Notes: a model not told the origin generated them from the sequence alone. Shown: positions 43,572 to 64,000, numbered from the stretch's first letter. The stretch: DNA of 64,000 nt from Alphaproteobacteria bacterium (GCA_964291265.2 OZ219747.1:384001-448000); one strand, 5' to 3'. Numbers and translations are program-made.

Positions 43572-43584
43572 CCGGTTCTTGCCA

Positions 43585-43815: not shown

Positions 43816-43888
43816 AGCAACTCGAACACCAGAACCAGACCGCCACGCGCTGTCGAAACTGCCCCACCAGGACGCTCAAATCATTCTA

Positions 43889-45104: not shown

Positions 45105-45128
45105 TAGGAGTCGATGACACAGCCATCC

Positions 45129-46931
45129 TAGATTCCTTGAATGAAGGCAATGGTGCACAGATGAGCCAAGTTTTCATCACGGACATATTCAGGCGGCAAG
45201 GGTCTGTCCCTCCCAGAGTTTGCTGACCTCGTCATCGAGCGAGTGGAGGATGCGTCCGAGCCTGGATGGCACCTTGTCATCGAAGGCCGCCGCCAGGGCA
45301 GGGCTGAGTGTCCGCCGGTGGATGCGGCAATAGGCAAGAGCGATCCTCTGCCCTCTTGCGTCAGACGATAGCGATGGGATGACGGTATCCTCTCGATGAG
45401 GCCCCGCAGGCGCAGGCGCCGCAGATCATAGGTGGCCTGACGTGAGCCATAGGTATCGGTCGACAGGAGGTCGGCAACGGCCTCTCTCATCTGGCGGTTG
45501 TTGAAGCCCATGGGGAGGAAGACATGCAGCAGGATGGCTGCGAGGACTGCCTGGATGCGTGGATCACCGAAGCGCAGGGCGGATACCCGACGTTCGTCGA
45601 CGACGACAGGTTGATGCAGGGCATCGAAGGTGGCTGCTCCGATCGGACAGTCGTGACTGATGCGTTGGACGTCGAGAAGACGTCGGGTGGCGTCGAAGCC
45701 GACCTCCTTGAGGTCATCGAGGTTGATCAGTCTGCGCTTGATGCCGAAGTCGTACGTGTTGTTGATCACCGTCTCCGTTCGCAGGGCACGGCCTTCCTTG
45801 AAGGACTGCTTGATACGCGAATGCCTGTCATCCACATGCAGCGACGGCTGCACGCCGTCGGTGATGACGCGGGTTCTGAACCGCGAGGTGGTCCGCCGTG
45901 TGATACGGCGGTTGAAGATCAACTGCACATGGTCAGGACGGCCGATGTCGAGGTTCTCGCGAATGATCTCCTCGAACAGGATCCGGCCGTGAAGAGGACG
46001 GTCAAACACCTGTGTGAGCGCACACTCCGCCTGGAGAATCGACAGGTCGTAGCGGATGCCCCTCATCGCGTCCTCGTCGGTGAAGGGATGGGGAAGCCAT
46101 GCCGTCCACTTGCGGAACAGCGCGTCGATCCGTGAGGCATCGATCTCCCCGGCCACGGCCTGCATGATCCGAGGATCGGCACAACTCAGGATGCCGTTGT
46201 CGAGAGCCTCGAAGGCCACCCCGCGCTTGCTCAGCTGACGCTTCAGGTATTCGTGACCATTGAGGCACAGCTTGGCGTTGTACGGGAAGTAGGAACAGAA
46301 CTTGATGAAGCAGGGACCAAAGTCGTCGTCCACGATGTAGATGTACCAGGCATTGACCATCGCCGTGCTGTGAACCAATTCGCAGGACGCCCTGCCCGTC
46401 GCCGGATCAACGCGCTTCTGCGTACGCAGGACACGGGCCTTCTCCTGGGCCTTGCCGACGTAAAGGACACCTTCACCGCCAGACCACAGGCGAAGATACT
46501 TCTGTGTCACATCATCCTTGCGCTCCCCCTTCCTGAAGCTGACAAGGTCGACACCCTGATCCCGGGCAAACCGCTCCAGGCGCGTCACAAAGCGCCGCGT
46601 CATCGGCGCCATCAGAGCCGATGACGGAACAGGATTGCCCCGAACCTCCCGAAAGAACCAGGCCGCGCCACCACCCGTCTGCAGCATTGGCACATAGGCG
46701 TTGAGATAAAGCCGGTCCAGACACTCAAGCTCCAGCGTCACGTGATTCTCAAGGACCTCGCCAACAGACCGTGCTATCGTCATCTTCTGGCCTCCGAACG
46801 ATGGGTTCCCCACATGGTTATCATAACCAACCCTCGGGCTGTATCAGGCGGGTCACCGCAGAGCGGAACAGCGGGCGGAGTCCTTTCCCTTCCGCGACGT
46901 CTCTCGTCGGTCTGAGGCATAGCCTCATTAG
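45129..46931 (-). mobile_element. Putative TIR-less single-gene mobile element bounded by TAG/CTA
   Basis: TAG at 45129-31 and 46929-31; the rejoined empty site is the palindrome GCCATCCTAGGAAAGGC; hairpin-rich 5' leader; no terminal inverted repeats seen. Confidence 0.6.
45189..46783 (-). pseudogene. Approx. 530-aa unclassified transposase/Rep-like protein with C-terminal wHTH, frameshifted near 45348
   Basis: ECLDRLYLNAYVP, LNGHEYL, SRIKQSFKEGRALRTETVIN, TYDLRRLRLRGLIERIP..HRYRLT; the alternative frame ends RIALAYCRIHRR...QTLAA* at 45189. Confidence 0.7.
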
Positions 46932-46994
46932 GAAAGGCATCGGACAACATGACACCCCTGCCGCAGCTCGCCGATCAGGGAGACCGCAACGCGC

Positions 46995-47024
46995 TTGACG
47001 GCGCGGGGCGGATTGTGTCATAAT
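46995..47024 (+). promoter_or_regulatory. Putative sigma70 promoter of the RTX gene
   Basis: TTGACG-N18-CATAAT with a TG extension. Confidence 0.5.
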
Positions 47025-47055
47025 TGTAGCGTTCATCCCGAATGGAGACCGTGGC

Positions 47056-48027
47056 ATGGCCAGATTCAGAGGAACCGACGGCGACGACTGGCTCTACGGC
47101 AACTTGCTCTTCGGCGGCGCTGGCAACGACTGGCTCTTTGGCGGCGACGGCGACGACAAGCTTCGGGGCGGTGCTGGCAACGACATGATCTACGGCTTAA
47201 ACGGCAACGACAGGCTCCACGGCGGCGACGGCCACGACAGGCTCCACGGCGGCGACGGCGACGACGGGCTCCACGGCGGCGCTGGCCTCGACAGGCTCCA
47301 CGGCGACGCTGGCCACGACAGGCTCTACGGCCACGCTGGCGACGACTGGCTGGAAGGCGGAGCCGGCAACGACATGCTCTACGGCGGAGCCGGCAACGAC
47401 TGGCTCTTTGGCGGCGACGGCGACGACAAGCTTCGGGGCGGTGCTGGCAACGACAGGCTCGACGGCTTAAACGGCAACGACAGGCTCTCTGGCGGCGCTG
47501 GCAACGACTGCCTCTCTGGTGGCGCTGGCAACGACATACTCTACGGCGGAGCCGACAACGACTGCCTCTTTGGCGGCAACGGCGACGACAGGCTCTACGG
47601 CGGCGCTGGCGACGACAGCCTCTACGGCGACGGCGGCAACGACTGGCTCTCTGGCCGCGACGGTGGCGACACGCTCCGGGGCGACGCTGGCGACGACACG
47701 CTCCGGGGTGGCACTGGCGACGACACGCTCTATGGCGACGCTGGCGACGACACGCTCTACGGCGGGAAGGGCGACGACACGCTCCGGGGCGGCGCGGGCA
47801 ACGACCGCTTTTTCTTCGATGCCGAAAGCGACCATGACACCATTGCCGACTTCGGGAACGGCAGCGATACCATCGTGTTCAAACAGAAGTTGGCCTACGC
47901 CGACATCATCATCAAGGACCGCGACGCCGGGACCGTGATTACCGGGCCTAATGATGACTGGAGCATCACGCTTGAAGGCGTGACAGCGGCCGAGCTTACC
48001 GAAAGCGACTTTGAGTTTCTGGGATAG
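47056..48027 (+). CDS. RTX (hemolysin-type Ca-binding) repeat protein with T1SS-type C-terminus
   Basis: About 27 consecutive GGxGxDxLx nonapeptides, then DTIADF...SITLEGVTAAELTESDFEF. Confidence 0.93.
   Translation: MARFRGTDGDDWLYGNLLFGGAGNDWLFGGDGDDKLRGGAGNDMIYGLNGNDRLHGGDGHDRLHGGDGDDGLHGGAGLDRLHGDAGHDRLYGHAGDDWLEGGAGNDMLYGGAGNDWLFGGDGDDKLRGGAGNDRLDGLNGNDRLSGGAGNDCLSGGAGNDILYGGADNDCLFGGNGDDRLYGGAGDDSLYGDGGNDWLSGRDGGDTLRGDAGDDTLRGGTGDDTLYGDAGDDTLYGGKGDDTLRGGAGNDRFFFDAESDHDTIADFGNGSDTIVFKQKLAYADIIIKDRDAGTVITGPNDDWSITLEGVTAAELTESDFEFLG
47083..47810 (+). repeat. 27-bp coding tandem repeat array
   Basis: GGCGGCGCTGGCAACGAC-type units; near-identical blocks at about 47120-47215 and 47390-47485 (270 bp apart). 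Confidence 0.9.
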
Positions 48028-48556: not shown

Positions 48557-49408
48557 TCAGGGAGCGTCGATGAGCGTCACGTCGACGGACCGGCTGGGGT
48601 TCACGACTTCCTCGCGGCCGGGCACGAGGGCGAGTTCCTCGGTGCCGCAGGCGGCCGTCCTTCTCATGATGCCATGCGTGGCGGCGAGGGCATGGGCCAG
48701 GGCGGCGGGAAGCGCGGCACCCCGCAGGGTCACCGCGGTGAAGACCGCGGCGATGAGGTCGCCGGCGCCATCGACCGGGACGTCGAGGCGTTCGACGCTG
48801 GCCTGGCAGGCGCACTGACTGTCAACGGCGATGACGGGAATCGTGTCAGGATACCCGGCGCGCGCCTCGAGCGAGGTGACGACCACGGTCTGTGGCCCCA
48901 GGCCCTGCACCTGCCGAGCGGCGTGGAGTGCGTCATCGATGCCCTCGACCCGCCGCCCGGCGAGGAACTCGAGCTCCATGTGATTGGGGAAGAGAATGTC
49001 GGCCCTCGGCACGATGTGATCCCTGAGGTACTCGGGCACGCCGGGTTCCACAAAGAAACCGTCCTCGTTGCCCATCACCGGATCGCATGCATAGAGGGCG
49101 CCGGGATTGGCCCGGCGCAGCACGTCGAGAGCATGGAGCACGGTGTCGCCGAGTTCCGGCGAACCGATGAATCCCGTCAGCAGGGCCCGGCACCGGCCGA
49201 GACCGCGTCGCGCGACGCCGTCGATCAGCTGCGTCACCCAGGCGGGTTCGAGAGCCCGTCCCTCGTAATCCTGCCAGCCCAGGTGATTGGAAAACACAAC
49301 CGTCGGCACGGCATCGACCTCGAAACCGAGAAGCTGCAGGGGCAGCACTGCCGCATTGAGACCGACATGGCCCCGCGCGACATGGGACTGGATCGTCAGG
49401 ATATCCAT
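48557..49408 (-). CDS. pdxY: Pyridoxal kinase
   Basis: ILTIQSHVARGHVG, PTVVFSNH, CDPVMG, PNHMEL, DGAGDL. Confidence 0.92.
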   Translation of the reverse strand: MDILTIQSHVARGHVGLNAAVLPLQLLGFEVDAVPTVVFSNHLGWQDYEGRALEPAWVTQLIDGVARRGLGRCRALLTGFIGSPELGDTVLHALDVLRRANPGALYACDPVMGNEDGFFVEPGVPEYLRDHIVPRADILFPNHMELEFLAGRRVEGIDDALHAARQVQGLGPQTVVVTSLEARAGYPDTIPVIAVDSQCACQASVERLDVPVDGAGDLIAAVFTAVTLRGAALPAALAHALAATHGIMRRTAACGTEELALVPGREEVVNPSRSVDVTLIDAP

Positions 49409-50276
49409 GGCTTCCGTCGTCCATCCGACGCACGCAATTGGCAAGGGCACGAGTGATAAGCCCTGCGGCCTTCCCGTGCAATGCGGCACGGAGTGACGAT
49501 GGACACCGAACGTCGGCGGCGTCATGGAAGACTTGTGCGGCGGGCGTCACCATGGAGACCGTGACGGGAGCCGACCGCCGTGAAGGATACTCTCGACTGC
49601 GCGATCGTCGGCGGGTGTACGCTTGCCCAGTGTCTTTCCACCGACAGTGTCATCCGTGTGCTCGTGGTGGAAACCGGAAGATGGGACCGCGGTCCCCCGA
49701 CTCACATTCCGCTGGGATGGGGCCGCGTCCTTCATGACTCCCTGCGCGGCTGGATGTATCTCCATGAACCCGTGCAAGGGTCTGGTGCCACGGCGTCGAG
49801 TGCGCCAGGAACAAGATCGTCGGAGGATCATGCTCGGTCAAGGCCATGGCATATGTGCGGAGAACCGCACGACTGCGACACCTGGGCGGCCGGCGATTCC
49901 GTCGACTGGGTCTGGATCAGCATGCGTCCCTGCTTCAAGCGCCAGGAGATCTGGGAGGAAGGCGCCGATGCCTGCCGGTGGCGCCCTCAACGTCCAGTTC
50001 TGCACGTACCGGGTTCCTCCTGTTGAGGCCTTGGGCGAGGCTGGCCGCGAAGCCCATCATGCCTGGACCGACGACTACAACCCCGCACACCAGGACGGTT
50101 TCGCTCGCCTGCAGATGACCATTCGCCCCGGCCGCCTGAGCGAGTGCCGCTTCGGCCGGCCTGCGCCCGGCACCCGGAAGGCGTGAACCGAGCGTGAACT
50201 CCCAGGCCAGGCGCATTCTCTGCGAGGGTGCGAGCGCCGTGGGCGTGGGGGCGCGCCAGGGCGAGCGGACACACAC

Positions 50277-52651
50277 CTTTCAACCAGACACTGTTGAATC
50301 CATCTTTTTCAGCATATCGAGTTCCTGCAGTTTCCGCATATTTCGGTGATGTTCGACGAAGGTGAGGAGGATTTCGTATCCCTGCCAGAGTTTCTCAGTC
50401 CCCGGCAGGGGTTGACGTTTTCTGGGAATGAAGCCCGCCAGGCGTGCGACGTCGACGGCGAAGGCTGCGATGGTCGGTTCGGGATCGGGAGGTCCACGCG
50501 GCGTGCGCTGTCGGCTGACCTTATAGATGTTCAGGACCGTGATCTCGTCGCGGTGGACGATGTGGCTTGCCGGGGTGTCTGGTGCCGAGCGTGCGAGGCG
50601 CTCGACGGTCATGACGCGGCATGCGGTGATGGCGTCGAAGGCCAGACACTTCCTCAGATCGTCGGCCTGGTTGAGGCGCCGGTCCTTGATCCGGGTGCCG
50701 ACCTTCAGGGCCTTGAAGTACTCTTCGATCCACCATCGCCTCTCGTAGAAGGAGACGGTCTTGAGGGCATCGTCTGCGGTGACGTCGCCTTCGGTGGTGA
50801 GCAGCATCCAGTCGAGAGGATCGCGGCCTGGCGGTGGGGCGGGTTCCGTGACCCGCACGGCCATCATGGAGAGCGGCGGCGTTGCCTGAGGCTTCTTGTC
50901 CGGCGGAGCCAGGTCGACCCTTGCCGCACGGACTTCGAGGCGTACGCCCTTGCGCTCCTTGCGACGACGCGGCCCTCCGCAGGCTGCGATGTCGATCTGC
51001 TTCGTTGCGATGCACGGCTCGTCCGCCATGTAGTCCCAAAGGTCCCGGCAGGCGCCCGTTGCGGTGACCACGCGGCGCCGTGTCGAGCGCCTGACGCGCA
51101 CCAGCAGACCGGCCTCGTGCTCCGTGCTCCGGGCCAGCAGGTCCCAGATGTCGCCTTCACGGTCACAGATCACCAACACCCTTGTCGAAGGACAGGCAGC
51201 GGCCAGTTCCACGGCCTTGTCGTACCCGTCGAGCCAGCGCCGGCTCTCCTTGTCGTCTGGCTCGTCCTTCTTCTGATCCGGCTTGAGACGGAAGTCGGCG
51301 TCGAGATGGAACAGGCCGAGGGATGAGCCGCCTTCGCTGAAGGCAACCCCGGCATGGGCCGCCATGCCAAGGGCGCCCGAGCCGCCGCCGCCGATGTCAA
51401 CAAGACCCTTGGTCGCCTCCAAGCCGTTGTCATTCAAGAACGTCGTGTCCTGGATGGCAAGAATCAGGCGCTGCGAACGGCAGCGTTCCACCATCGCTTC
51501 CTGGTGCCCCTCAAGGATATGCTCCATCGTCACCCTCGGATTCGACAACAAGCGGTAGGCCGCCTTCTGCTCCGCCTCGCCGGGGAAGATCACCGGCAGG
51601 ATCGCGCCGGGACGATCGTTCCACGCCCGGCCCATGGTGACAAGGCGCTCGCGGATGCGCACGTCACTGTGGCTGCTGCGGGCGTACTCCCTCATCGCCC
51701 AGTCGGTCCTGTCATCACCGACAAGGGGCGCCGCCTGGCCCATGACACGCTCAGGCTCCCGGCACAGCACGGCGCGCCAGTCAGGCGTCAGGGGCTTCAT
51801 CCATACGGACCGCTGCACGCCCGGGCCGGTGGCCCCGGGAGGTCGACCCGAGGTCATCTCCTCACAGCGCTCCCAGCCCGCCGCCCGGTAGCTCACGCCG
51901 CTGTGCTCGGGACCCACATACGTGTACGCCAGAACCGGCTTCACCCCGTACTTCTCGTGCCAGTCCGTAGCCAGACGCCGGCAGGCACAGGCCAGGGCAT
52001 GGGAGGCCAACTCCTTCACATCCACCGATGGAAGAATCAGGAAGCGATCATTGTTGACGATCTCGCCGAGGTGGGCGACACGGGCTCCCTGGGACCAGCC
52101 GATGAAGTCGTCGCGCGCCTTCTGGTGCCAACTCGCCGCACCAAACACCAGGCCGCCGAGGCGACCGTGGCGCGACGAGGTGATCCAGTAGCTCACCCGG
52201 GCTCCGGGTGCGCACGCCTCGCCTTCGGGATGCCAGGTCGCCATCATCGAACGGGCCAGGCGCTTGTCCTCGCCCTCGCCCACAGGCTCCAAGGTGACCT
52301 CTCCAAGGTCCTCCAGAGAACAGGCGAGGAGCTTGTCGGGATAGTCCCGCTCAAGGATGTCGGCGCCGGTGCCGAAGGCATCAGGCCTTGGTGCAGGAAG
52401 GGCGATGTCGAGCGACGCAGCAAGGTCAGGCAGGGCCGCACGCGCCGAGGCAAGACAGAGCTCGCCCTTCGCGTTGCGCCACTCCTCGCGCTCGCACAAT
52501 CCCCGCGCCAGAGACGAGCGTGTGCTGCCCTCGGCAGCCGACGCCGCCTTCAGCCAGTCAACCGTCGTCGCAGACAGATGTCGAAAGCCGATCCTCATGG
52601 GCCACTATGTAAGGCCTCATGAACGTCGAGTCAAGCCTGTCCCGTTGAAAG
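50277..52651 (-). mobile_element. IS4-family element A (2375 bp)
   Basis: TIRs CTTTCAACCAGACA / CTTTCAACGGGACA; 9-bp TSD GACACACAC at 50268-76 and 52652-60. Confidence 0.93.
50280..52598 (-). CDS. IS4/IS50-type transposase with N-terminal DUF4338 (DruA-like) domain
   Basis: ARDDFIGW, VNNDRFLILP, GVSYRAAGW; Tn5-like DNA-binding WAMREY; DDE motifs AIQDTT, CDREGD, YERRWWIEEYFKALK. Confidence 0.9.
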   Translation of the reverse strand: MRIGFRHLSATTVDWLKAASAAEGSTRSSLARGLCEREEWRNAKGELCLASARAALPDLAASLDIALPAPRPDAFGTGADILERDYPDKLLACSLEDLGEVTLEPVGEGEDKRLARSMMATWHPEGEACAPGARVSYWITSSRHGRLGGLVFGAASWHQKARDDFIGWSQGARVAHLGEIVNNDRFLILPSVDVKELASHALACACRRLATDWHEKYGVKPVLAYTYVGPEHSGVSYRAAGWERCEEMTSGRPPGATGPGVQRSVWMKPLTPDWRAVLCREPERVMGQAAPLVGDDRTDWAMREYARSSHSDVRIRERLVTMGRAWNDRPGAILPVIFPGEAEQKAAYRLLSNPRVTMEHILEGHQEAMVERCRSQRLILAIQDTTFLNDNGLEATKGLVDIGGGGSGALGMAAHAGVAFSEGGSSLGLFHLDADFRLKPDQKKDEPDDKESRRWLDGYDKAVELAAACPSTRVLVICDREGDIWDLLARSTEHEAGLLVRVRRSTRRRVVTATGACRDLWDYMADEPCIATKQIDIAACGGPRRRKERKGVRLEVRAARVDLAPPDKKPQATPPLSMMAVRVTEPAPPPGRDPLDWMLLTTEGDVTADDALKTVSFYERRWWIEEYFKALKVGTRIKDRRLNQADDLRKCLAFDAITACRVMTVERLARSAPDTPASHIVHRDEITVLNIYKVSRQRTPRGPPDPEPTIAAFAVDVARLAGFIPRKRQPLPGTEKLWQGYEILLTFVEHHRNMRKLQELDMLKKMDSTVSG

Positions 52652-52924
52652 GACACACACCGTCCGCCGGGCGCGAAGTCATCGTGCCATGCGGGGGTAT
52701 CGATTCGGCGACATTCCTCATGCATTCTGGCCTCGGCGCTGTCCACGCCCTGCGCCAGCATGACATCCTGGTTCTCGTCGACCTGCCCGGTGTCTACGGC
52801 ACTCTGCAGGACCATATCTCGACGATCCTGCCCTACCCCTGCCGAGAAACCGGGGCCCTTCGCCAGGGCCATGCGCCATGCGGCGGGCCCGGTTTCTCGG
52901 CAGCGGCCTTGCCCTGCCTATTTG

Positions 52925-55282
52925 TCATAAATCGTGCAGGGCGCGGTCATGTCCTTCCGACGTCGGATCCAGATCGAGGGCCTCGAGCAGGCATTCATAG
53001 GCCAGGGCAGCGGTGGCCAGTCGCGGATAGCCATGCCACATCGTCTGGTTGCCCGGCGCCGGATCATGCTTGCGGTCCAGATACCCGCCGAGGATCGCCA
53101 CCAGCTTCACCGCCGCCCCCAGCGTGTCGGGCGGGTCCAGCCGGTATCGCCGGGCATAGTCGCCGAGGAAGCGGAGTTCCAGGTCCGAGAACAGGCAGTC
53201 GGGCTTCATCGTCGGCACATCCCGCCCGAGCAGGGTCATCAGGGCAAGACGCCAGGCGATCACGGCGTGGATGGTGATCTGCCGTTCCAGGCGGCAGGCC
53301 TTGCGCGTCGCCAGGTGCTCCACCCGGCAGCCGGACTTCAGCACCCGGAACCAGCATTCGATCCGCCAGCGCAGCGCGTACCAGCCGACGATCTCCTGGG
53401 CCGCTTCGGCGTGGTCCACAGGAAGGTCGGTCAACAGGAACCATTCCACCGGAGCTTCCCCGGCCGGCGGGGCCGTCTCGAGGAGATGCAGCGCGGTCAC
53501 GGCCACGGGCGCGGCATCGGGGCAGCCAGCGGTCGCCGGCAGCGTGGTCGACAACCAGCGCAACTCCAGCACCGCGTTCCGCCGGGCAGTGCGGCCGGGC
53601 TGCTTCTTGCGCCCCGAGGACTTCGGCCGGGCCGTCAGGCGGGGTATGTCGATCTGCATGGTGCCGCGGCAGGCAGACGTACGTAGTCGGGTGAACAGCT
53701 TCGCAGCCCCGCGCTTGAGGACCCGGTCATGTCGAGCCCGCACCAGCATCGACAGACGGCGATGCTGCCGGCACCGGTCGAACAGTTCGAAGAAGTCCGC
53801 TTCCCGGTCCATCACGCACACGACCTTCACCCCGGTCGTCCGGGCCGCGAGGTCCGCGATGTCGTCGAGACCGTCGAGCCAGCGCTGCGACTTGCGCCGG
53901 GACATCTCGACATCCTCGCCCGAACCGGTCTTTGCCCGGGGGCGGGGAGGAGCGTCGAAGGCAAGACGCGCCACCCCCAGCGGCAGGCCTTCGCCGCTGA
54001 CAACGTAGCTGGCGTGCAGGTGCAGGCCCAGGGTCTGCGAGGCCGTCTGGTTCGTGCCGATGATGCCCAGACCGTCGCAGCCCGGACGGGTCGCGAAGTT
54101 CAGGTCCGTCCCGTCCTGAATGCACAACGCCACCCGCTGGCCGCACATCCGCTGCACCGTTCGTTGACGGTGCGGCGCCAGGATGTTCGCCGGGGTCACC
54201 GCCGACGTCTCCGGCTGATCCAGGAACCGATAATAGGCCCGGACACCGGCAGGATCCGGGCGCGCCAGACCGCTGTAGGACGACATCGGACTCTCTCCCT
54301 GTCTTCGTGCAATCTCCACCAGGCGCGCACTCAGACGCCGGTCGCCGATCGGCGCTCCCCCGAACTCGTGGTGCGCCCACGCCGAGGCGTCCAGACCCTC
54401 CCCCGGGGACAGGGCCGGCATCGGCTCCGCCACCCCCAGCTTGTGCCGCCAGTCCCGGTCCAGAACGTACATGTACACGGCCTTGACGCTCTCGGCCATC
54501 TCGCGCGCGCGGTCCTGACGGCCTCGGCCCCGGGTGAACCCCACGAGCTGCCAGTTCGCCGCCCGCAGGCTCGCACCGTCGCGCGTCGGGTCGACATAGG
54601 TCTCGACCAGCCATGGCAGGAACCCGTAGCGCTGCGCAACATCGGCGCCCAGGCGAGACAGGCACATCGACAGCGTCTTCGACGCAAGGTTCGCAACCGG
54701 CACCCGGATCAGAAACCGGCTCATCGACAGCACCCGGTGTCGCTCCGCACGACGCCGGTCGGCATCCCAGCCGATCCAGGCATCCCGATCCGCCACCTTC
54801 AGCGCCGCTGCGGCAAAGCCGAAACCGCCGAGACAGCCGTGAGCGGAATCCACCAGATAGCGCAGCTGATGACCGGCCAGAATGGGAGCGCCGAGAAAGT
54901 GCTCCCGCGCCATCAGTTCGTTCCAGAGCGCCCGTTCGGCATCCGTGCGCACCAGCAGGATCCGCAGACCCTGGATCGCCGCCACGCTCGCCGGCACATC
55001 ACGCGGCTTCTCCACCGCCTCGCCGAGCCGGCGGGGCGTTGCCCGACGCCGCTGACCGGAGGGCTCCGGCAAGCCCTCGATCCTGCCCTGCGATGCCAGC
55101 TGCTTCAGGGCCACGACACAGCTCGATACCCGCTCGCGTCCCCGTGCGTCCCGCAGGCCGAAGTGCCGGCACACTTCCAGCGCCAGGCGGTTTTGACTAC
55201 TATCGCCGCTCTCGGTGACGATCGACTGCAGGCGATCGAGCTGGTCCTCGAGGACGCGTTTGATCGGAATGTGTGCTTCCAT
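52925..55282 (-). CDS. IS4/IS50-type transposase with N-terminal DUF4338 (DruA-like) domain
   Basis: EHFLG...QLRYL, DRDAWIGW, SRFLIR..NLAS, ETYVDP..GASLRAANW; CIQDGTDL, MDREADF, YALRWRIECWFRVLKSG. Confidence 0.9.
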   Translation of the reverse strand: MEAHIPIKRVLEDQLDRLQSIVTESGDSSQNRLALEVCRHFGLRDARGRERVSSCVVALKQLASQGRIEGLPEPSGQRRRATPRRLGEAVEKPRDVPASVAAIQGLRILLVRTDAERALWNELMAREHFLGAPILAGHQLRYLVDSAHGCLGGFGFAAAALKVADRDAWIGWDADRRRAERHRVLSMSRFLIRVPVANLASKTLSMCLSRLGADVAQRYGFLPWLVETYVDPTRDGASLRAANWQLVGFTRGRGRQDRAREMAESVKAVYMYVLDRDWRHKLGVAEPMPALSPGEGLDASAWAHHEFGGAPIGDRRLSARLVEIARRQGESPMSSYSGLARPDPAGVRAYYRFLDQPETSAVTPANILAPHRQRTVQRMCGQRVALCIQDGTDLNFATRPGCDGLGIIGTNQTASQTLGLHLHASYVVSGEGLPLGVARLAFDAPPRPRAKTGSGEDVEMSRRKSQRWLDGLDDIADLAARTTGVKVVCVMDREADFFELFDRCRQHRRLSMLVRARHDRVLKRGAAKLFTRLRTSACRGTMQIDIPRLTARPKSSGRKKQPGRTARRNAVLELRWLSTTLPATAGCPDAAPVAVTALHLLETAPPAGEAPVEWFLLTDLPVDHAEAAQEIVGWYALRWRIECWFRVLKSGCRVEHLATRKACRLERQITIHAVIAWRLALMTLLGRDVPTMKPDCLFSDLELRFLGDYARRYRLDPPDTLGAAVKLVAILGGYLDRKHDPAPGNQTMWHGYPRLATAALAYECLLEALDLDPTSEGHDRALHDL

Positions 55283-55379
55283 GCAGGGCAGGGTCAGACG
55301 TCCTGACCTCGTGAGTTGACTTGATCCGTCCGGACCTTCTTTTTTTCCAACACAATGAACGGGTTTCCCAGTTTTTTGC

Positions 55380-55430
55380 TTGACACCATAGCCGTGGGGT
55401 GATCCAATATAACATGACGCCTATATTGGA
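55380..55430 (+). promoter_or_regulatory. Transposase promoter with operator-like palindrome
   Basis: TTGACA at 55380; TCCAATATA-N10-TATATTGGA at 55403-55430. Confidence 0.6.
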
Positions 55431-55442
55431 GCATTCCAGGCC

Positions 55443-57708
55443 ATGAACACGCTCGCAATGCACCCTCCCGAAGCCGTCCAGATCGGAACCTCGTGCTTCT
55501 CCCTTGCCGACCTCGACGGACAGACCGTCTACTTCTCGAACATGGAGCCCTTCGACTGCCACGACGAGGGCGACCGGCCGGCCATGCTGCTGCGGATCGC
55601 CAGGTTCGTCAGGCACGGCGTTCCTCAAAGAGACCTGCAGGCGGCCTTCGACGTGAGCCGCGCGACCGTGCAGCGGGCTTATGAGGAAGCTCCGGGACAG
55701 GGGTGAAGCGAGCTTCTACGAGCCACGCAAGGGCCGTGGTCTCAGCGTGATCACAGGCGAGACGGCAGCCGCGGCGAACCGTCTCCTGGCCGAGGGCATG
55801 AACGCCGCGGCACTGGCCCGGGAACTGGGGATCGCGAGATCGACGGCGTACTACAACCTCAGCAACGGCTTCATCGGCGGCGGAGAGCGGCCGCAGGCGG
55901 CGCAAGTCGACGAGGCCACGCGATGCCCGGACGATCTTCTCGGCCGCGGCGAACGGGACCGTCGCGACAGGGTCGCGCCGATGGGGCGCGGCGCGCGCGA
56001 CAGCGCCGGGCGCGTCGCGGCCTCGACGGGAGCCATGAGCGAAGCGCCGCCGCGCTTCGACGAGCCACTCTCGGCGGTCGCCGGCGGCGGCGTCCTGGCG
56101 GCGCTGCCGGCGCTGCTGAAGGAGGGTCTCCTGGAGCACGCGGACAGGTTCCTGTCGCTGCCGAAAGGGTACTACGGGCTGACGAGCGTGCTTCTCATGC
56201 TCGCCTTCCTGTTCATGGCCCGGATCCGCAACCCCGAGGCGCTGCGCCACGAGGCGCCCGGGGAACGGGGTGCGGTCCTGGGGCTCGACCGCTGCCCGGA
56301 GGTCAAGACGCTGCGGCGCAAGATCAGGGCGCTGGCGAGCGACCCGCAGCGGGTCCGGGACTGGCAGGACGCGCTGGCGAAGGACTGGATCGCGGAGGCG
56401 CCGGATGTCTGCGCGACACTGTCGGTGGACGGGCACGTGAAGGTGTATACCGGCCGCAAGGGTCGCCTGCCGAAGTACTTCGTGTCACGTCAGAAGCTCT
56501 GTCTGCCGGCCTCGACAGGCTATTGGGTCAACGCGCTCGGCGGCCGGCCGCTCCTGTGCCTGCACAAGGACCTCGATCCGACCATGACGCACGCGCTGGA
56601 GCACGACATCCTGCCCGCGCTGGAGCGGCTCGGCCTGCCGGGGCCGGAGGCGCCGGACCTCGCCAGGGGAGAGGCGGTCGCGCCGGGGCTGACGCTGGTG
56701 TTCGACCGCGAGGGCTGGAGCCCGGCGCTGTTCGCCCGCCTCGCCCGGCGCGGGGTGGCGGTGATCACCTGGCACAAGGGGTTCCGGAGCGATCCCTGGC
56801 CACAGGGAGAGTTCCGCACGGTCCGGGCGCCGCTCCACTCACCAGGTGGCGTCCGCACCGCCGAGGTGCGGCTCGCACAGAGACGGATCACGCTGTCCGG
56901 CGGACCGCAGGTGCGCCAGATCCGGCGTCTTCTGGACAGCGGCCGGCAGGTGCCGCTTGTCACCACGGACATGCACACGCCCATGGAGCGGGTCGCCGGC
57001 GCGCTGTTCTCGCGCTGGTCCCAGGAGAACTTCTTCAAGTACATGCGCCAGGAGTTCGGCCTCGACACGCTGGCCGTGCACGGCCTTGTCGAGCAGGACC
57101 CCGAAGCGCGCGTCGTCCATCCGCACTGGCGCCGCTGCGACCGCCGCATCCGCCAGCTGCGCCAGAAGCTCGGCACACTGCGCAACCGCGTCGCCGACCT
57201 GCTCAAGGGCGCCCCGTCCGACACCGCCATCACGGCCGCCGCGACGCTGCAGGACAAGATCGTGACGCTCGACGCCGAGCACGAGGCGCTCAAGGTCCGG
57301 CGTTCAGAAATCCCGAAACATGTCACCGTGGCCGAGCTCGACGAGAACGACAGGCTCGACGCCCTGCCCTCCAGCGAGAGGCTGCTGCTCGACATCGTTC
57401 GCATGATCGCCTACCGCGCCGAAACCTGGATGATGGCCGCCGTCGCCCAGGCCCAGGGCGCAAAACAGCGTCCGCGACGCCCCCTCGCCGAACTGTTCCA
57501 GTCGGACGCCGACATCATCCCCGATCAGGAAAACCGCGTCCTGCGGGTGCGCTTCCTCGGCACCGCCAGCAACGCGCGCGACGCCGATATCGCCGGACTG
57601 CTCGACGAACTCAACCAGACGCGCACGACCTTCCCAGGAACCGACCTGCGCATGATCTACGAACTGCCAGACAACCCAGCCAAACTCGGCCCAGAAGCAT
57701 CAAACTGA
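55443..57708 (+). CDS. Putative DDE transposase (about 755 aa), split by a 1-nt frameshift at about 55680
   Basis: N-terminal HTH runs across two ORFs (VSRATVQRA|MRKLRDRG); LSVDGHVKVY, LVFDREGWS, FSRWSQENFFKY. Confidence 0.8.
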
Positions 57709-58480
57709 TTGGACAAATTCATAGCCGAGGTCAGGACGTCTGAGGGTGCACCATCCGAATCATCTTGTCCAGCACGATTTATGACCCAAGAGTAGGCCTT
57801 GCCAGCGACCCTCCAGCAGGAATCACCGCCATCCTCGAGACCGACGTCAGACTGTCGGCGCCCGACATCCGGCTCCCTTCCTGCGGCAGCCCGCGCAACG
57901 CCGGTCCGTGACGCCTCGAACCCTTCACGGATGGCTTTGTCTTCCCCGCAACGGGGAACGGATCACGCTCGCCGATGGGAATCCTGCGGCATGGACGCCT
58001 CTGCAGTTGACGTTCCTTGCCAGGGAGAACGACTGGAAGGCGATGCGCCGGGTATCGAGCTTGCCCGCGATGTCCCTTCGCAGCTGCTCTCGGGCCCTTA
58101 CACAGACGCCGGGACCGGGAGGCAGGGATATCGGCGATCACATCCGATCGGCTCCCATCTCCGTGCATCATCCGCCGGGCGCCTGCTCGATGGGACGTGA
58201 CGGCGATCCGGCAGCGGTCGTCGACCGGATCCTGGAAGTCCATGGAGCCACGGTCCTGAGGGTCATCGATGCCGCGTCATGCCGCGCCTCGCGAGCGTCG
58301 GCGTCAACGCCGCTCCCATCGCCGTGGCGGAGCGTGCAGCCGGCCTCATTCCGGACAATCCGCCGCTTCCTCAGGTGGCGGAGATCATTGCGGATGGCGG
58401 AGGGCATCCTGTAGGCTCAGGCTCCCTGATCCGGCCCCCTGCCCTCCGGGGAACGGATTGACCTGACGAGGGAGATCCCC

Positions 58481-59527
58481 ATGAAGCAATCCGCAAGAAA
58501 GTTCATTGTCGGGCTCGCGGCGGGAGCCGTCATGGCGTTCGGCGTCATCGGGGCCGCAGTGGCCGACGACGTCACGAGCATTGCGGTTCTCGTTCCTGAA
58601 CAGGGCACGGATTTCGGCTGGAACCAGCAGGGTGTCGATGCCGCACGCACCGTCGCGGACATGCACGGCCTCGACTTCATGCCGGCAGAAGGTCTGGGCT
58701 ATGGCGACGTCCGCCCCACACTGCGCGAACTCGCCGAGGACGGCGCCAGCCTGATGATCGCCCACGCCAGCGGGTACAACACGGCGGCCCCGGAGATCGC
58801 TGCCGAGACCGGTGTGCCGGTGGCCATTGTCGACAGCCCCGATGCCATCCAGGAGGGCCTGGTCGCAGACTACACGCTCCACGGCCACGAAGGAGCCTGG
58901 CTCGCCGGGGCCATGGCCGCGATGATGAGCCGCTCGGGAACCGTGGGCATCGTCGTTTCCGGTGAACCGCCGTCGTGGAATTCCCAGTCCGCCGGGTTTG
59001 CCATGGGCGCCCGCGCCACAAATCCCGACATCAACATCGTCTACGCCGTGATCGGCCCGGCCGCCTACGGTGATGTCGCCGGTGGACGCCGTGTCACGGA
59101 GACGGTGATTGCCGCAGGCGCCGATATCATCTTCGGACAGGGGAACGGTTCCAGTTTCGGCATGATCCAGGCGGTCGAAACGACCGCAGCCGCGGACGGT
59201 GGCAAGGTGTGGTTCATCGACGTGATCGGCGACAAGACATCCCAGGCCGCCAGCCACCTCCTCAGTTCCGTCCTGTGGAACATGGTTCCAGTCTATTCCG
59301 CCATGCTCGAAGACCTCAAGGCGGGCACCTTCGGAACCGTGGGATACAAGATCCAGCTGGCCGATGATTCCGTCCAGTTGCTGAAGACCGACAACATTCC
59401 GGATGAAGTCTGGACGGCGGTCATGGCCAGGCGCAATGACATCCTCTCCGGCATGATGATCGACCTCATCACGGATGCCCGGAAGGTCCGTGCACTGATG
59501 ACGTCGATCGATATCGGCAAGGACTGA
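58481..59527 (+). CDS. BMP-family ABC substrate-binding protein (putative vitamin B6 transporter)
   Basis: Signal peptide; TDFGWNQQG, GLGYGDVRPTLRELA, AHASGYN; lies between B6-degradation pseudogenes. Confidence 0.85.
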   Translation: MKQSARKFIVGLAAGAVMAFGVIGAAVADDVTSIAVLVPEQGTDFGWNQQGVDAARTVADMHGLDFMPAEGLGYGDVRPTLRELAEDGASLMIAHASGYNTAAPEIAAETGVPVAIVDSPDAIQEGLVADYTLHGHEGAWLAGAMAAMMSRSGTVGIVVSGEPPSWNSQSAGFAMGARATNPDINIVYAVIGPAAYGDVAGGRRVTETVIAAGADIIFGQGNGSSFGMIQAVETTAAADGGKVWFIDVIGDKTSQAASHLLSSVLWNMVPVYSAMLEDLKAGTFGTVGYKIQLADDSVQLLKTDNIPDEVWTAVMARRNDILSGMMIDLITDARKVRALMTSIDIGKD

Positions 59528-59571
59528 ACCGGGACCTGCGTCAAGGGTCACACTGCCAGGAGCAGCGACGG

Positions 59572-61173
59572 GTGGAACCTGGTCCGGTCGGTGCGCCTGA
59601 CGGCGATGCCGCCCTCACGCTTCATCACATCACGAGGCGATTCCCCGGCGTCCTCGCAAACGACCGGGTGTCGCTGGTCTTCCGGCGCGGCGAGATTCAT
59701 GCCCTGCTGGGCGAGAACGGCGCCGGCAAGTCCACGCTCATCGGCATCGTTTCCGGCATGGTGCGCCCCGACTCCGGCTCCATCGAAGTGGCGGGCCGAA
59801 TGGTGCGAATCACGTCGCCTTCCGCCGCCCTGCGCCTGGGTATCGGCACGGTTCATCAGCATGTCCTGCTCGTCCCGAGCCTGAGTGTCCTCGAGAACCT
59901 GATGCTGGGAAACCCGTGGTGGCACATCCTTGACCGTGCCGCGACATCCCAGCGATTCGCCGAACTCGCCGAACTGCTCTCTGTCAGGGTATCGCCGGAT
60001 GCTCCGCTGAGCAGGCTCTCCCTGGGAGAACAACAACAGGTCGAGATCATGCGCGCCCTGTGGCACGGCGAACTGGTTCTCTTCCTCGATGAACCAACGT
60101 CGATGCTCACGCCCCAGGGCGTCGACGATCTCGGAGTCGTCATGCGACGCCTGCGCGACCATGGTGTCGCCATCGTCTTCATCACCCACAAGCTGAAGGA
60201 GGCCAGTGATCTCGCTGACCGCATATCGGTGCTGCGCCAGGGGCGCGTTGTCGGTGAAGTGACGCCCGTCGAACTGCGCGCCATGTCGTCGGACGCGATC
60301 ATTGAACGCGTCGTGGCGATGATGTTCGGAGACGGCGGGAAGGCGGGGGACCTGCGGGCCACCCTCGTCGGCGACGCCGTCGAACCGCCGAGCCGGCGGC
60401 ACACCGATGCCGGGGTGGAGCCCCTTCTTCGACTCCGTGGCGGACATACTGCCGGAAGGCAGGGCGAGTGCGCTCTCGATGGCGTGGACCTCGAGGTCCG
60501 GCCCGGAGAGGTCATGGGCATTGCCGGTGTCGACGGCAACGGACAGAAACACCTGGCCGAGGTGCTTGCCGGCCAGCGCATGATGACAGCCGGCTCGCTC
60601 TCGCTTGCCGGCCGGGAGATCAGCCATCTCGACGTTACCGGTCGCCGCCGACTCGGGGTGCGCTACATCACCGACGATCGACTCGGCGAGGGAACCGCAC
60701 CGCGCCACTCTCTGGCCGTCAACCTTGTCATCAAGGAAATCGGCTCGCCACGATTCTGGAAGGGCGGAATCACCTCGTGGAGACGTATCCACGCTCACGC
60801 CCGGAACATGATCAGGGCCTACAGCATCGTGGCGCCGTCGGAACGGGCGCCTCTTGCCGGCCTCTCGGGCGGCAACATCCAGAAGGTCCTGCTGGCCCGG
60901 GAGTGGACCGGCGATGCCCGGCTTCTGGTGATTTCCAAGCCGACCTACGGACTTGACCTTCAGAACACGCGCCGGGCGCGGGACTGGATCAAGAACATCG
61001 GCGGCAACACAGATGTTGCAGTTGTCGTCATCTCCAATGAACTCGATGAACTGATCGAGGTGACGCATCGCATCGCGGTGTTGGAGCGCGGCCGCATTTC
61101 CGGCATCGTCATGAACCGGTCGGGCGCCAGGACAGCGATCGGCCGCCTGATGGCGGGAGTCGGGGCTGCCTGA
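59572..61173 (+). CDS. ABC ATP-binding protein, two-domain sugar/nucleoside type (putative B6 transporter)
   Basis: HALLGENGAGKST, LDEPTSMLTP, LSGGNIQK. Confidence 0.9.
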   Translation: MEPGPVGAPDGDAALTLHHITRRFPGVLANDRVSLVFRRGEIHALLGENGAGKSTLIGIVSGMVRPDSGSIEVAGRMVRITSPSAALRLGIGTVHQHVLLVPSLSVLENLMLGNPWWHILDRAATSQRFAELAELLSVRVSPDAPLSRLSLGEQQQVEIMRALWHGELVLFLDEPTSMLTPQGVDDLGVVMRRLRDHGVAIVFITHKLKEASDLADRISVLRQGRVVGEVTPVELRAMSSDAIIERVVAMMFGDGGKAGDLRATLVGDAVEPPSRRHTDAGVEPLLRLRGGHTAGRQGECALDGVDLEVRPGEVMGIAGVDGNGQKHLAEVLAGQRMMTAGSLSLAGREISHLDVTGRRRLGVRYITDDRLGEGTAPRHSLAVNLVIKEIGSPRFWKGGITSWRRIHAHARNMIRAYSIVAPSERAPLAGLSGGNIQKVLLAREWTGDARLLVISKPTYGLDLQNTRRARDWIKNIGGNTDVAVVVISNELDELIEVTHRIAVLERGRISGIVMNRSGARTAIGRLMAGVGAA

Positions 61174-61174
61174 G

Positions 61175-62224
61175 ATGGGCCAGCGGCACCCTTTCCTTTC
61201 CCCGCTTCACGGGATGATCTCGGTGCTGTTGCCGGTCGTTCTCGCTCTTGCCGTCGGCGCTGTCCTGCTGCTGGCGCTCGGCAAGGATCCCTTCGCCTAC
61301 TACGGCTACGTCGTCAAGCGGGGCCTGTTGAGCCCGACGGGGCTTGAGGCCACACTCACCCGCACGGCGCCCCTGCTGTTGATCGCTGCCGGATTGATCG
61401 TGGCCTTTCGCAGCGGCCTGTGGAACCTGGGCGTGGACGGTCAGCTCCTTCTCGCCGCCGTGGTGACGGCGGCCCTGGCGCCCGAACTCGCAGGCACGAT
61501 GCCATCGCTGCTGATGGTGGCTGTCTGTCTTGCCGTGGCCATGGCGGTTGGCGCCGCCTGGTCTCTCATTCCCGCTTTCCTCAAGGCCCAGTTCGGCGTC
61601 AACGAGATCATCTCAACCCTGATGATGAGCTTTCTGGGTGTCAGCCTCGCCAATGTCCTCATCAAGATTCCTTTCAACGATCCGCTGACCACCGTGCCTC
61701 AGACCGCCACCCTTGCCGTCGAAGACCGTCTCACGCGGCTGGCGGATACCACCATCCACTGGGGGGTGCTGCTGGCGCTCGCCATGGTGGTGGTTGTCCA
61801 CCACGCGATGACGATGACGGCACTGGGGTTGAGACTGCAGATTGTCGGGGCGAACATGCGCACGGCCGTCCACGCAGGCCTCCGGCTGCGGATTCTCGTG
61901 GTGGTCGCCTTCGCCATCAGTGCGGGCCTGGCAGGTCTGGCCGGCGCCGTCGACGTTCTCGGCGTCCACGGCGCCATCCGCGCCGACTGGAACCCAGCCT
62001 ACGGCATCGTCGTCATCCCCCTGGTCTTCCTGGCGCGCTTCAACGGTTACGCGGTCATCGCCTTCGTCTTCGTCTTCGCCGTGCTCGTCATCGGTGGGGA
62101 AAGCGCCGCCCGGCGGCTTGACGTTCCGACGTACTTCGTTCTGGTGCTGGTGGGACTGGTGATGCTGTTCCTGGCCGTCACCGAATTCCTGGACCACCGC
62201 CGGCGCCTGACGGAAAGGGACTGA
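61175..62224 (+). CDS. ABC permease (BPD_transp_2; putative B6 transporter)
   Basis: AFRSGLWNLGVDGQ, VNEIISTLMM; multiple TM segments. Confidence 0.9.
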   Translation: MGQRHPFLSPLHGMISVLLPVVLALAVGAVLLLALGKDPFAYYGYVVKRGLLSPTGLEATLTRTAPLLLIAAGLIVAFRSGLWNLGVDGQLLLAAVVTAALAPELAGTMPSLLMVAVCLAVAMAVGAAWSLIPAFLKAQFGVNEIISTLMMSFLGVSLANVLIKIPFNDPLTTVPQTATLAVEDRLTRLADTTIHWGVLLALAMVVVVHHAMTMTALGLRLQIVGANMRTAVHAGLRLRILVVVAFAISAGLAGLAGAVDVLGVHGAIRADWNPAYGIVVIPLVFLARFNGYAVIAFVFVFAVLVIGGESAARRLDVPTYFVLVLVGLVMLFLAVTEFLDHRRRLTERD

Positions 62225-62229
62225 CACCC

Positions 62230-63165
62230 GTGGACGGCCTGCTCAGCGAAGCCTTCATTGCCTCCCTCTTCTTCGGCGCCGTCACGGCCGGAGTGCCGCT
62301 GCTTCTCGCCGGGCTTGGCGAGCAGGTGTCCGAAAAGGCGGGCGTTCTCAACATTGGACTCGAGGGCATGATGCTGGCCGGCGCCTTTGCCGGATTCGCC
62401 GCTGCCCATGCCAGCGAATCGTTCCTTGCCGGTTTCTGTGCCGGAATCCTGGCGGGCATGGCCGCGGCGCTCATCATGGCCATGCTGTGTGTCGTTCTCG
62501 GCATGAACCAGATCGTCGTCGGTATCGCCATCACGCTTGGCGCCGAGGGCGTCACGGCCCTCCTGCACCACGTGCTCTATTCCCGTTCCTATCCACGGCT
62601 CTCCCGGGTCGAGACATGGACCATTCCCGGCCTGGCCGACATCCCCTACGTCGGCGCGGCCCTCTTCGACCGCAACGCCCTCATCTACGTCACCTTCGCT
62701 CTCACCTTCTTCATGATCTGGGTGTTCAGGCACACCCAGGCCGGGCTCAACCTGCAGGCAGCCGGCGATGCCCCGGCGGCCCTCGATGCGGCGGGCGTGA
62801 GCGTGACGATGACGCGTTTCGTTTCGGTGCTCGTGACTGGATGCCTTGGCGGTCTGGGAGGCGCCTACATGGCAACGGTCGGCGGTGGCCTCTTCCTGCC
62901 CTTCATGACCGGCGGCGCCGGATTCATCGCCATCGTGCTTGCCATGCTGGCCCGCGGCAATCCCCTGTGGGTCCTCTTCGGAGCCCTCCTGTTCGGCTCC
63001 AGCCTCGCTCTCACCACCGCCCTGCAGGTGGCCGGCGTCAACATCCCCACCGACGTCATCCAGATGCTGCCCTTCGCCATGGTGATCGTGGTCCTGCTGC
63101 TGTTTGCCAGGCACAGCTACCTGCCACCGGCACTGGGGCTTCCCTATCGGCGCGGAGCGCGCTGA
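62230..63165 (+). CDS. ABC permease (BPD_transp_2; putative B6 transporter)
   Basis: SEKAGVLNIGLEGMML, GAGFIAIVL, QMLPF, PPALGLPY. Confidence 0.9.
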   Translation: MDGLLSEAFIASLFFGAVTAGVPLLLAGLGEQVSEKAGVLNIGLEGMMLAGAFAGFAAAHASESFLAGFCAGILAGMAAALIMAMLCVVLGMNQIVVGIAITLGAEGVTALLHHVLYSRSYPRLSRVETWTIPGLADIPYVGAALFDRNALIYVTFALTFFMIWVFRHTQAGLNLQAAGDAPAALDAAGVSVTMTRFVSVLVTGCLGGLGGAYMATVGGGLFLPFMTGGAGFIAIVLAMLARGNPLWVLFGALLFGSSLALTTALQVAGVNIPTDVIQMLPFAMVIVVLLLFARHSYLPPALGLPYRRGAR

Positions 63166-63194
63166 CGGCATCACCCACCGGAGAGGATCACGTC

Positions 63195-63815
63195 ACGGCC
63201 GGTCCCAAGGACCGCCTTCGCGGCGGCGGAAACCTGATGATCGACGGCTTCCATGCCTTCCGGAACCGTGGACCGGGAGGTGAACTCCGTTCCTTCCCTA
63301 CGACCATGCCGTCCGAGTCGGACATGGAGACGCTCGCCATCTCTTCGACATCAGCTACGACCATGAGTGCACCATGAAGGTGCCGCCCTTCGAGACACCG
63401 CTGCAGACACCCGTGCGGACCATTCCGGGAGTCCTCGGTCTCGTCGGTCCGAGGCCCTCCGACATCAACTCGCAAGGGTGGCTTCGATCGCTGCCGCGGG
63501 AGCCGGCACATCGCGACCGCTACCCGGTGTACCGCGAGGGACTCGAAGCCCGCGAGCGCCATCAACCCTTCGAAAACCCGGGACGGATCCCGGCTTCACG
63601 AAGGGCGGGACGGCGATGGACGAGTTCAGTCGGCGGCTCGGGAAGCTCCGAGATCGCGGTCTGTCCGCCGAGAGTCGAGACCCTGACCGGCAGTCAGGAC
63701 ATTGCCAGGGTCCTGCGGCTCTTCGAGACTCCCGAGCACTCGGGCTTATCACGACTCGATGATGGTCGAACTGGCCAACCGGCGGCCCATGCTCTCCGTC
63801 GCCGCCGAACGAGGA
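63195..63815 (+). pseudogene. 4-pyridoxolactonase (AHL-lactonase/MBL fold) pseudogene
   Basis: ACG in place of ATG after GGAGAGG; GGNLMIDGFHAFRNRGPGGELR, SYDHECTMKVPPFETPLQ..TIPGVLGL, QPFENPG, QDIARVLRLFETPEHS, MMVELANRRPML; HxHxDH motif destroyed; frameshifts. Confidence 0.8.
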
Positions 63816-64000
63816 CACCGCATCGGCGACGGGGAGCGTCCCCTTGATCGACAATCGAATCGAGGATGCCGACGGCGTATCGCGGTGGACGGACAGCGGC
63901 AACCACGGAGATGTCCCGGTGGTCATGGAGTGCGCCTCAACAAGCAGCCGGGCCCATGGCGTCATTGAACGGTACTCTGATCTCGACCATCGTCTCGTGA

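Follow-up and report, generated by a model that had tools for sequence, protein, structure and literature searches.

A probable relic of a cluster for vitamin B6 uptake and degradation, with an intact putative importer, in an alphaproteobacterium lacking known B6 synthesis genes

We think it quite likely, judging from gene content and alignments, that the window analysed here (the whole stretch of DNA under study, 64,000 nucleotides) holds the remnant of a cluster for the uptake and breakdown of vitamin B6 in a bacterium lacking both known routes of B6 synthesis, where an intact importer likely brings in free B6 to be turned into PLP by way of PdxY. The original prediction, that B6 catabolism was lost and the importer and kinase were kept, is borne out by the lesions: over 2,819 aligned bp the four catabolic remnants carry 38 frameshifts, or 13.5 per kb with gaps placed approximately, and the importer carries none. 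The source genome (G000) measures 4.83 Mb in two contigs, is 100% complete with 2.6% contamination, and has metagenome-assembled Alphaproteobacteria as its nearest relatives. Genome G011 (locus L120) was used as the intact reference for the DNA alignment of the locus, the features of which are collected in Table 1.

Table 1. Features of the B6 locus, in window coordinates unless a contig (C2) is named
Feature	Position	Strand	Evidence
pdxY-type pyridoxal kinase, intact, 283 aa	48557..49408	-	profile scores; no indels
Putative pdxY promoter TTGCAC-17-TATCAC, inferred	49451..49481	-	block mostly conserved across an alignment of 7 genomes
4-pyridoxate dehydrogenase-like GMC pseudogene, piece 1	49580..50277	+	5 frameshifts; alignment to intact G011 gene
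IS element 1: IS4/Tn5-family transposase with DruA domain	50278..52650	-	Pfam, NCBIfam; 11-bp direct repeat
GMC pseudogene, piece 2	52651..52913	+	2 frameshifts
IS element 2: IS4/Tn5-family transposase with DruA domain, ORF 52925-55282	52914..57794	-	9-bp direct repeat
IS element 3 (Transposase_29, ORF 55681-57708), nested in IS element 2	55294..57745	+	PF21804, 366 bits
GMC pseudogene, piece 3	57795..58429	+	PF05199 match; 10 frameshifts
Putative importer promoter TTGCGG-18-TAGGCT, within GMC 3' tail, inferred	58388..58417	+	cross-genome conservation
BMP-family substrate-binding protein, putative B6 importer, intact	58481..59527	+	NF047927, 472 bits (cut-off 400)
ABC ATPase, two domains, intact	59572..61173	+	NF047930, 700 bits (cut-off 670)
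Permease 2, intact	61175..62224	+	NF047929, 501 bits (cut-off 400)
Permease 1, intact	62230..63165	+	NF047928, 499 bits (cut-off 465)
4-pyridoxolactonase pseudogene	63195..63808	+	11 frameshifts; sole NCBIfam match NF047925
Pyridoxamine-pyruvate aminotransferase (ppat) remnant, 5' part only	63801..64000, on to G000:C2:448313	-	9 frameshifts
Unnamed 129-aa gene, between ppat and pldh remnants, past the window	C2:448306-448692	+	lipoprotein-type signal (by eye)
Pyridoxal 4-dehydrogenase (pldh) remnant, past the window	C2:448712-448930	-	alignment to G011

The two catabolic genes that flank the importer are heavily decayed, as had been read from the window alone, and far more than chance would explain. 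The GMC dehydrogenase gene has accumulated 17 frameshifts and two in-frame stops, with a branch dN/dS of 0.89, and a 12-bp deletion struck the FAD-binding GxGxxG motif in its first piece; the lactonase remnant has lost its start codon, its metal-binding motif is destroyed and its 3' end is deleted. All seven peptide motifs quoted in the original prediction were found again, in two different frames, at 49703, 49995, 50106, 58163, 63243, 63374 and 63419. The extent of the damage had been underestimated: two broken genes were recognised, and three IS elements, ppat, pldh and four deleted genes were missed. Decay in fact extends beyond the window end into ppat and pldh, where a deletion of about 830 bp fuses the ppat remnant to the lactonase remnant (taking the lactonase 3' end and most of ppat) and another of about 530 bp takes out most of pldh. 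The lesions of lactonase, ppat and pldh were counted on alignments that stop at these deletions, a longer alignment falsely overrunning them. No orthologous match was found in G000 to the cupin, LVIVD, FHMPC dehydrogenase and DUF1185 genes. The GMC dehydrogenase and lactonase genes are old pseudogenes, and four genes of the lower pathway have been deleted outright.

The decay of the GMC gene is real and not an assembly artefact, because over GMC piece 1 the contigs of runs X1 (possibly the source sample) and X2 are identical to the window, with 0 differences, and run X3 of the same study has no indel difference there. The X3 contig, 12.8 kb long, comes from a near-identical strain, and all of the 21 gap bases in its first stretch fall outside GMC piece 1. 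It joins 50266 to 52651 and 52904 to 57795, and all three IS elements are therefore absent from that strain. In the window these elements take up 7.3 kb of the interval 48557..63815, all of it inside the GMC gene, and they have further copies in the genome at no less than 98% identity (3 for IS element 1, 8 for IS element 2 and 6 for IS element 3). The third lies near one end of the second, and a loose end corresponding to its empty site occurs in X1. As the X3 strain is free of these elements and yet shows no indel difference in GMC piece 1, they arrived after the gene had died, and IS insertion was rejected as the cause of its inactivation.

The identity of the two broken genes was assessed mainly on their intact orthologues. 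The intact GMC protein scored 487 against the BetA model (TIGR01810), far below its cut-off of 732, and BetA was rejected; two other genes of G000, read as partial frames, scored 725 and 731. It shares 65% identity with a protein named 4-pyridoxate dehydrogenase by JGI, which is indirect evidence for the M. loti Mlr6792 type. Pyridoxine 4-oxidase was likewise rejected: the GMC protein gave 265 bits against 4HA6, which is pyridoxine 4-oxidase-like, versus 461 for a second class of GMC proteins, and the GMC proteins of B6 loci form a clade of their own (support 100) apart from the pyridoxine 4-oxidase-like ones. The GMC fragments are in this way supported as fitting the 4-pyridoxate dehydrogenase clade better than BetA. 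For the lactonase, the G011 orthologue scored 454 with NF047925 (cut-off 325) and only 118, 97 and 82 with the AiiA, AttM and AhlS models, and an AHL lactonase was discarded. Both assignments made in the original prediction hold against the generic families. The G011 orthologues of the two other remnants also pass their cut-offs, ppat with NF046070 (607 against 600) and pldh with NF047923 (389 against 325).

The importer genes (58481-63165) form one operon-like run and, like pdxY, were correctly described as intact, all five having full open frames and no indels relative to G011. At the rate of the remnants 62 frameshifts would be expected in the 4,635 bp of the importer if it were neutral, and none was observed (P ~1e-27). 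Branch dN/dS in G000 is 0.22 for the binding protein, 0.19 for the ATPase, 0.18 for permease 2 and 0.11 for permease 1, which differs from the value of the GMC gene with a Fisher p of 2e-15. The dN/dS analysis that had been proposed for the transporter therefore speaks for purifying selection, under which both pdxY and the importer stand. We find it hardly credible that decay has simply not reached the importer yet and that the entire cluster is in the course of loss; this is largely refuted. The many IS copies would suit such an account, as would the 76 of 259 sampled G011 ORFs that have no counterpart in G000 and the dN/dS of the binding protein, which is raised above that of two sibling branches (0.04 and 0.07). 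Against it stand not only the missing frameshifts but also the pairwise dN/dS of the importer versus G011, which lies within the normal range of the genome (16th-61st percentile of 158 sampled intact genes), and the binding protein, which retains 110 of the 110 residues conserved in at least 95% of 80 homologues. Moreover, G000 is not generally ruined: of 183 ORFs shared with G011, 158 are intact, one is multicopy and 24 are broken or partial, the last figure being a maximum in which miscalled frames are counted.

A separate promoter is predicted for the importer at 58388-58417, and for this reason the IS insertions were probably harmless. Of 16 genomes examined, 13 have the pattern TTGCG-N19-TA[GT]GCT ahead of the binding-protein gene, among them G010 and G002, where the GMC gene is 2 and 8 kb off and the spacer differs. 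A scan of 55200-58600 for the E. coli-type sigma-70 consensus reported no promoter.

The product of pdxY scores 255 bits with TIGR00687 (cut-off 144.5), 285.7 with the PdxY model NF004398 (cut-off 292) and 165 with the PdxK model (cut-off 342), and is much nearer to PdxY than to PdxK. No frameshift was observed in the gene where 11.5 would be expected at the remnant rate; its dN/dS is 0.26 on the branch and 0.14 pairwise, the latter at the 44th percentile of sampled genes. The kinase is a resident gene and no relic of the cluster. It is present in all 25 family genomes and adjoins leuB-asd in G011 and in two pdxJ-positive genomes examined, so that its retention, which the original prediction had counted as part of the event, lies outside it; that pdxY is intact stands.

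No match to pdxJ, pdxA or pdxS was found in the complete genome of G000, in which the controls were detected; pdxH is intact and yggS is present. This gene content agrees with the salvage-only criteria given in the main text of PMC9997740 (no pdxJ, no pdxS, PdxK/Y present), and by it G000 would be a B6 auxotroph, as had been suggested. That B6 is made by a so far unrecognised de novo route, the importer merely recycling leaked vitamers, seems very improbable to us. Such a route would agree with the intact pdxH, with several named importer species that have no pdxJ or pdxS matches and with the pathway holes said to remain in the main text of PMC9997740; however, pdxH serves salvage too, pdxS is absent from 44 of 44 genomes searched (the 16 other family importer genomes among them), and within the genus pdxJ and pdxA are jointly absent from each of the 15 importer genomes, which fits the loss of a pathway.

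Salvage in place of synthesis also agrees with the distribution of the importer. Within the family it was found over cut-off in 17 genomes and pdxJ in the other 8, a complementary pattern in 25 of 25, and pdxA tracks pdxJ bar one extra match in G024. In an rpoB tree, a quick version from which G003 is missing, 16 of the 17 importer genomes make up one clade (SH-aLRT 86) and G024 is separate; the pattern therefore amounts to about two evolutionary events, not 25. Outside the family, where 50 of 73 more distant loci were tested, 23 importer genomes gave a pdxJ match (one of them frameshifted) and 27 gave none, pdxS being absent from these 27 and from the frameshifted one. In a class-wide sample pdxJ occurs in 77 of 121. 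The depletion of pdxJ among the outside importer genomes is weak and confounded, because the 50 genomes may include incomplete ones and many are kin, and the importer clearly occurs in prototrophs too. Candidatus Sodalis endolongispinus was considered as an independent replicate; its pdxJ is frameshifted, but so is its importer ATPase, and it lends no support.

In the relatives the catabolic genes are preserved, which sets G000 apart in its clade. Of the 16 other importer genomes, 15 have an intact lactonase, and in the remaining one contig ends split the gene. Among the 15 stretches that hold the GMC gene it is complete in 14 and truncated by the stretch edge in one, and it is absent from the 20 kb examined in G024. 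The FHMPC dehydrogenase was seen in 14 of 14 importer genomes checked (the 16 others except G016 and G019), and a gentisate-dioxygenase-like cupin, absent in G000, in all 16 other importer genomes and in none of the 8 importer-free ones. By gene content these relatives are auxotrophs that also carry degradation genes, and G000 has lost only the degradation. Since the 16 relatives with catabolic genes also lack pdxJ and pdxS, the auxotrophy is older than the decay, and the importer probably served salvage already before it. The original prediction spoke of a locus converted to salvage; the salvage role was kept, as it said, and conversion is an overstatement, a dual-use importer having probably been narrowed to salvage.

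We propose that an ancestor gained the cluster and lost pdxA and pdxJ, one importer then feeding both catabolism and cofactor supply. Early on the G000 branch catabolism would have been lost, as the GMC dN/dS near 1 suggests, with four genes decaying and four being deleted. The importer would have stayed under selection because it was still the remaining cofactor supply, and later the three IS elements would have landed, probably without harm, in the dead GMC gene. The imported free B6, most likely pyridoxal, would reach PLP through the resident PdxY.

The cluster of the relatives only partly resembles the degradation route with which it had been identified. The upper pathway of vitamin B6 degradation has been described for pathway I (PMC6253932). 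With pathway I of Mesorhizobium loti and Pseudomonas MA-1 the relatives share ppat, pldh and 4-pyridoxolactonase over their cut-offs, and they also encode the GMC protein for which JGI uses the name 4-pyridoxate dehydrogenase and an FHMPC dehydrogenase-like protein (4OM8, E 4e-114, with the L044 protein as query). The ancestral pathway was not the whole of Mesorhizobium pathway I. Neither G000 nor 15 other genomes of the genus yielded an orthologue of pyridoxine 4-oxidase (best 39% identity), and a cupin/LVIVD block occupies the place of ring opening. The lower enzymes of pathway I are a decarboxylase, the flavin oxygenase MHPCO and an AAMS hydrolase; unlike in that pathway, cupin, LVIVD and DUF1185 proteins take their place beside the FHMPC dehydrogenase. 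Among the 46 loci with this dehydrogenase, the cupin occurs in 36, LVIVD in 41, GST in 44 and RidA in 40. No recurring clusters of decarboxylase, MHPCO or AAMS hydrolase were recognised near the 80 importer loci, and a crude motif scan of G000 gave no convincing candidate for them. In G000, in contrast to pathway I, the pathway is dead.

An importer placed next to catabolic genes could carry any intermediate of the pathway; in G000, all enzymes that use these intermediates are gone. With those enzymes gone, the importer under selection and no known synthesis, the predicted ligand is one that can be used for the cofactor, and not 4-pyridoxate or its lactone alone. As ppat, pldh and the dehydrogenases are lost, only a vitamer acceptable to the kinase would be useful, and since this kinase is PdxY-like and characterised PdxY phosphorylates pyridoxal only, according to the main text of PMC9997740, pyridoxal is the predicted cargo. 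The locus is in this sense a natural experiment that predicts pyridoxal if the PdxY of G000 is typical, and it singles out one protein, the binding protein, and three of its residues (Trp47, Asp247 and Trp266).

We regard as unlikely the alternative that the importer was kept for a ligand other than a B6 vitamer the cell can use, such as a nucleoside or another pyridine or ring compound, B6 or PLP entering through a P5PA-type protein or by diffusion of pyridoxal. The binding protein shares the BMP family (PF02608) with the nucleoside binders PnrA/TmpC, BmpA, BmpD and Lbp; the solved BMP relatives found are all distant, with nucleoside and atrazine binders among them, and the importer holds the only BMP protein left in G000, where G011 has four and G004 three. 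In BmpA, Asp98, Asp225 and Lys242 are ribose contacts conserved in nucleoside-binding relatives, according to PMC13325309. Two of these three are replaced in our family, the positions of Asp225 and Lys242 being taken by Ile249 and Trp266 in 80 of 80 homologues, on a weak alignment (best score E 1e-14) in which the Lbp alignment served for both positions and the PnrA alignment for the first only. Against Lbp, the binding protein of G000 keeps Trp47 (an aromatic), Asn48 and an Asp at 118. An intact purF in G000 also argues against a nucleoside, and the importer family is accompanied by B6 enzymes in most of the 80 loci (lactonase in 50, ppat in 42). None of the 25 family genomes lacks both importer and pdxJ. 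In some outside loci the importer is placed by genes of HpaB-like and isochorismatase-family proteins. Because HpaB-like hydroxylases adjoin it in four of them (L068, scanned, and L073, L079 and L059, by likeness), some lineages may use the importer for other ring compounds, and the importer family may not be uniform. For G000 free B6 remains our preferred cargo.

The B6 label of the importer is not new, NCBIfam already listing a "putative B6 ABC transporter" (NF047927 to NF047930) whose curated cut-offs all four genes exceed; the difference in G000 is that the importer persists without any catabolic partner. In the open-access literature searched we found no binding or transport data for this system, and nothing on point for the transporter, for a cupin-based B6 pathway or for a comparable pseudogene case. 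The passages of PMC5320631 covered make no mention of the system, and the word BMP does not occur in the main text of PMC9997740. B6 transporters are an acknowledged gap: according to that text only three prokaryotic ones have been characterised, with substrates verified for two, and about 10% of the organisms analysed rely on B6 salvage. PdxU, PdxU2/HmpT (ECF) and P5PA, treated there, likewise supply B6 or PLP to salvage-reliant organisms, but belong to protein families other than that of the BMP importer. In G000 neither ECF transporters (PF07155, PF12822), S-components included, nor NCS1 transporters (PF02133) were found. A bolder suggestion, which we put forward tentatively and would not expect to hold in every part, is that NF047927-30 may be a fourth prokaryotic class of B6 importers, taking up pyridoxal with high affinity and built on the nucleoside-binding fold of BMP proteins. 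Its gain may have allowed this lineage, like many other proteobacteria, to dispense with de novo synthesis, and it may work with a 129-residue exported beta-sandwich protein whose occurrence tracks that of the importer and not that of the catabolic enzymes. The evolutionary story by itself is unsurprising; it offers a clear example of an importer of a catabolic cluster that was kept to supply a vitamin, in which the substrate of an unverified transporter family becomes directly testable.

This 129-residue protein belongs to a family found in 47 of the 80 importer loci, some of them without catabolic genes. No Pfam or NCBIfam model matches the family, which has four near-invariant cysteines and one invariant histidine. 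A beta sandwich was predicted (pLDDT 95), with generic fold matches, the best at Z 8.8 (rmsd 2.3-2.8, 79-87 residues aligned) to the PepT extracellular domain; these gave no function, and an Atlas search returned unnamed clusters. The gene in G000 has no frameshift versus 5.3 expected, and its dN/dS between G000 and its siblings (0.19-0.41) resembles that among the siblings (0.13-0.46). However, neither G000 nor the X3 strain retains the stop codon of this gene, and four of the five differences between these two alter a residue. The protein may be an accessory of the importer, or may recently have been released from selection.

The genes that adjoin the FHMPC dehydrogenase, a lower-pathway enzyme of B6 breakdown, differ from the textbook arrangement. 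The place beside it of the textbook ring-opening enzymes is taken by a gentisate-dioxygenase-like cupin and an LVIVD-repeat protein, often accompanied also by RidA and GST genes. This cupin-type neighbourhood was found at 36 of the 46 FHMPC dehydrogenase loci among L002-L081, and the cupin/LVIVD block is present in relatives of the source genome (G000) too (L134-L143, L109, L201, L202). In the genus of G000 a DUF1185 gene (PF06684) comes next in the block, replacing RidA/GST.

At L068, L073, L079 and L059 the importer family, a putative B6 ABC transporter, adjoins genes for HpaB-like hydroxylases, a flavin reductase-like protein and an isochorismatase-family protein, which suggests another pyridine catabolic route. 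In Ca. Sodalis endolongispinus (L050, L200) the importer stands alone with a small orphan gene, and both pdxJ and the importer ATPase gene carry frameshifts. The named importer-bearing species behind L024, L037, L043, L075 and L077 have genomes of 4-7.5 Mb and gave no match to the synthesis genes pdxJ and pdxS. These species are therefore candidate cultured B6 auxotrophs on the basis of gene content.

A 129-aa gene family co-occurs with the importer, being present at 47 of the 80 importer loci. Its members share four conserved cysteines and one invariant histidine, and it is predicted to be an exported beta-sandwich protein. The G000 copy has lost its stop codon.

Across the whole G000 genome, eight or more additional paralogues belong to the GMC oxidoreductases, the family of the decayed 4-pyridoxate dehydrogenase-like gene, and six of them exceed the choline dehydrogenase subfamily cut-off. 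Only one BMP-family gene is left in G000, whereas close relatives have three to four.

The rpoB open frame comprises about 1,620 aa in G000 and related importer-clade genomes, compared with about 1,390 in the rest of the family. In the long frame the profile match begins near position 245; over the initial 600 aa of the G000 locus (L158), Pfam identified neither an intein nor any other domain.

Coordinates of features in the window and elsewhere in G000 (C2, contig carrying the window; L144, locus with the 129-aa gene just past the window end)
Feature	Position	Remark
tRNA-Ser	window 43483-43571	first feature of the 43483-48027 region
IS630-like element	window 43961-45096	follows tRNA-Ser; two overlapping frames, HTH and DDE_3 domains
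561-aa ORF	window 45128-46813	no Pfam match
RTX-repeat protein	window 47056-48027	
IS4/Tn5 transposase	window 50280-52598	DruA-like domain
Second IS4/Tn5 transposase	window 52925-55282	different from the first; DruA-like domain
129-aa family member	G000:C2:448306-448692 = L144:3307-3693	no family name
rpoB locus (L158)	G000:C2:2934242-2940451	

Both IS4/Tn5 transposases occur in multiple copies across G000, and in each the Druantia DruA-like domain (PF14236) lies close to the N terminus.
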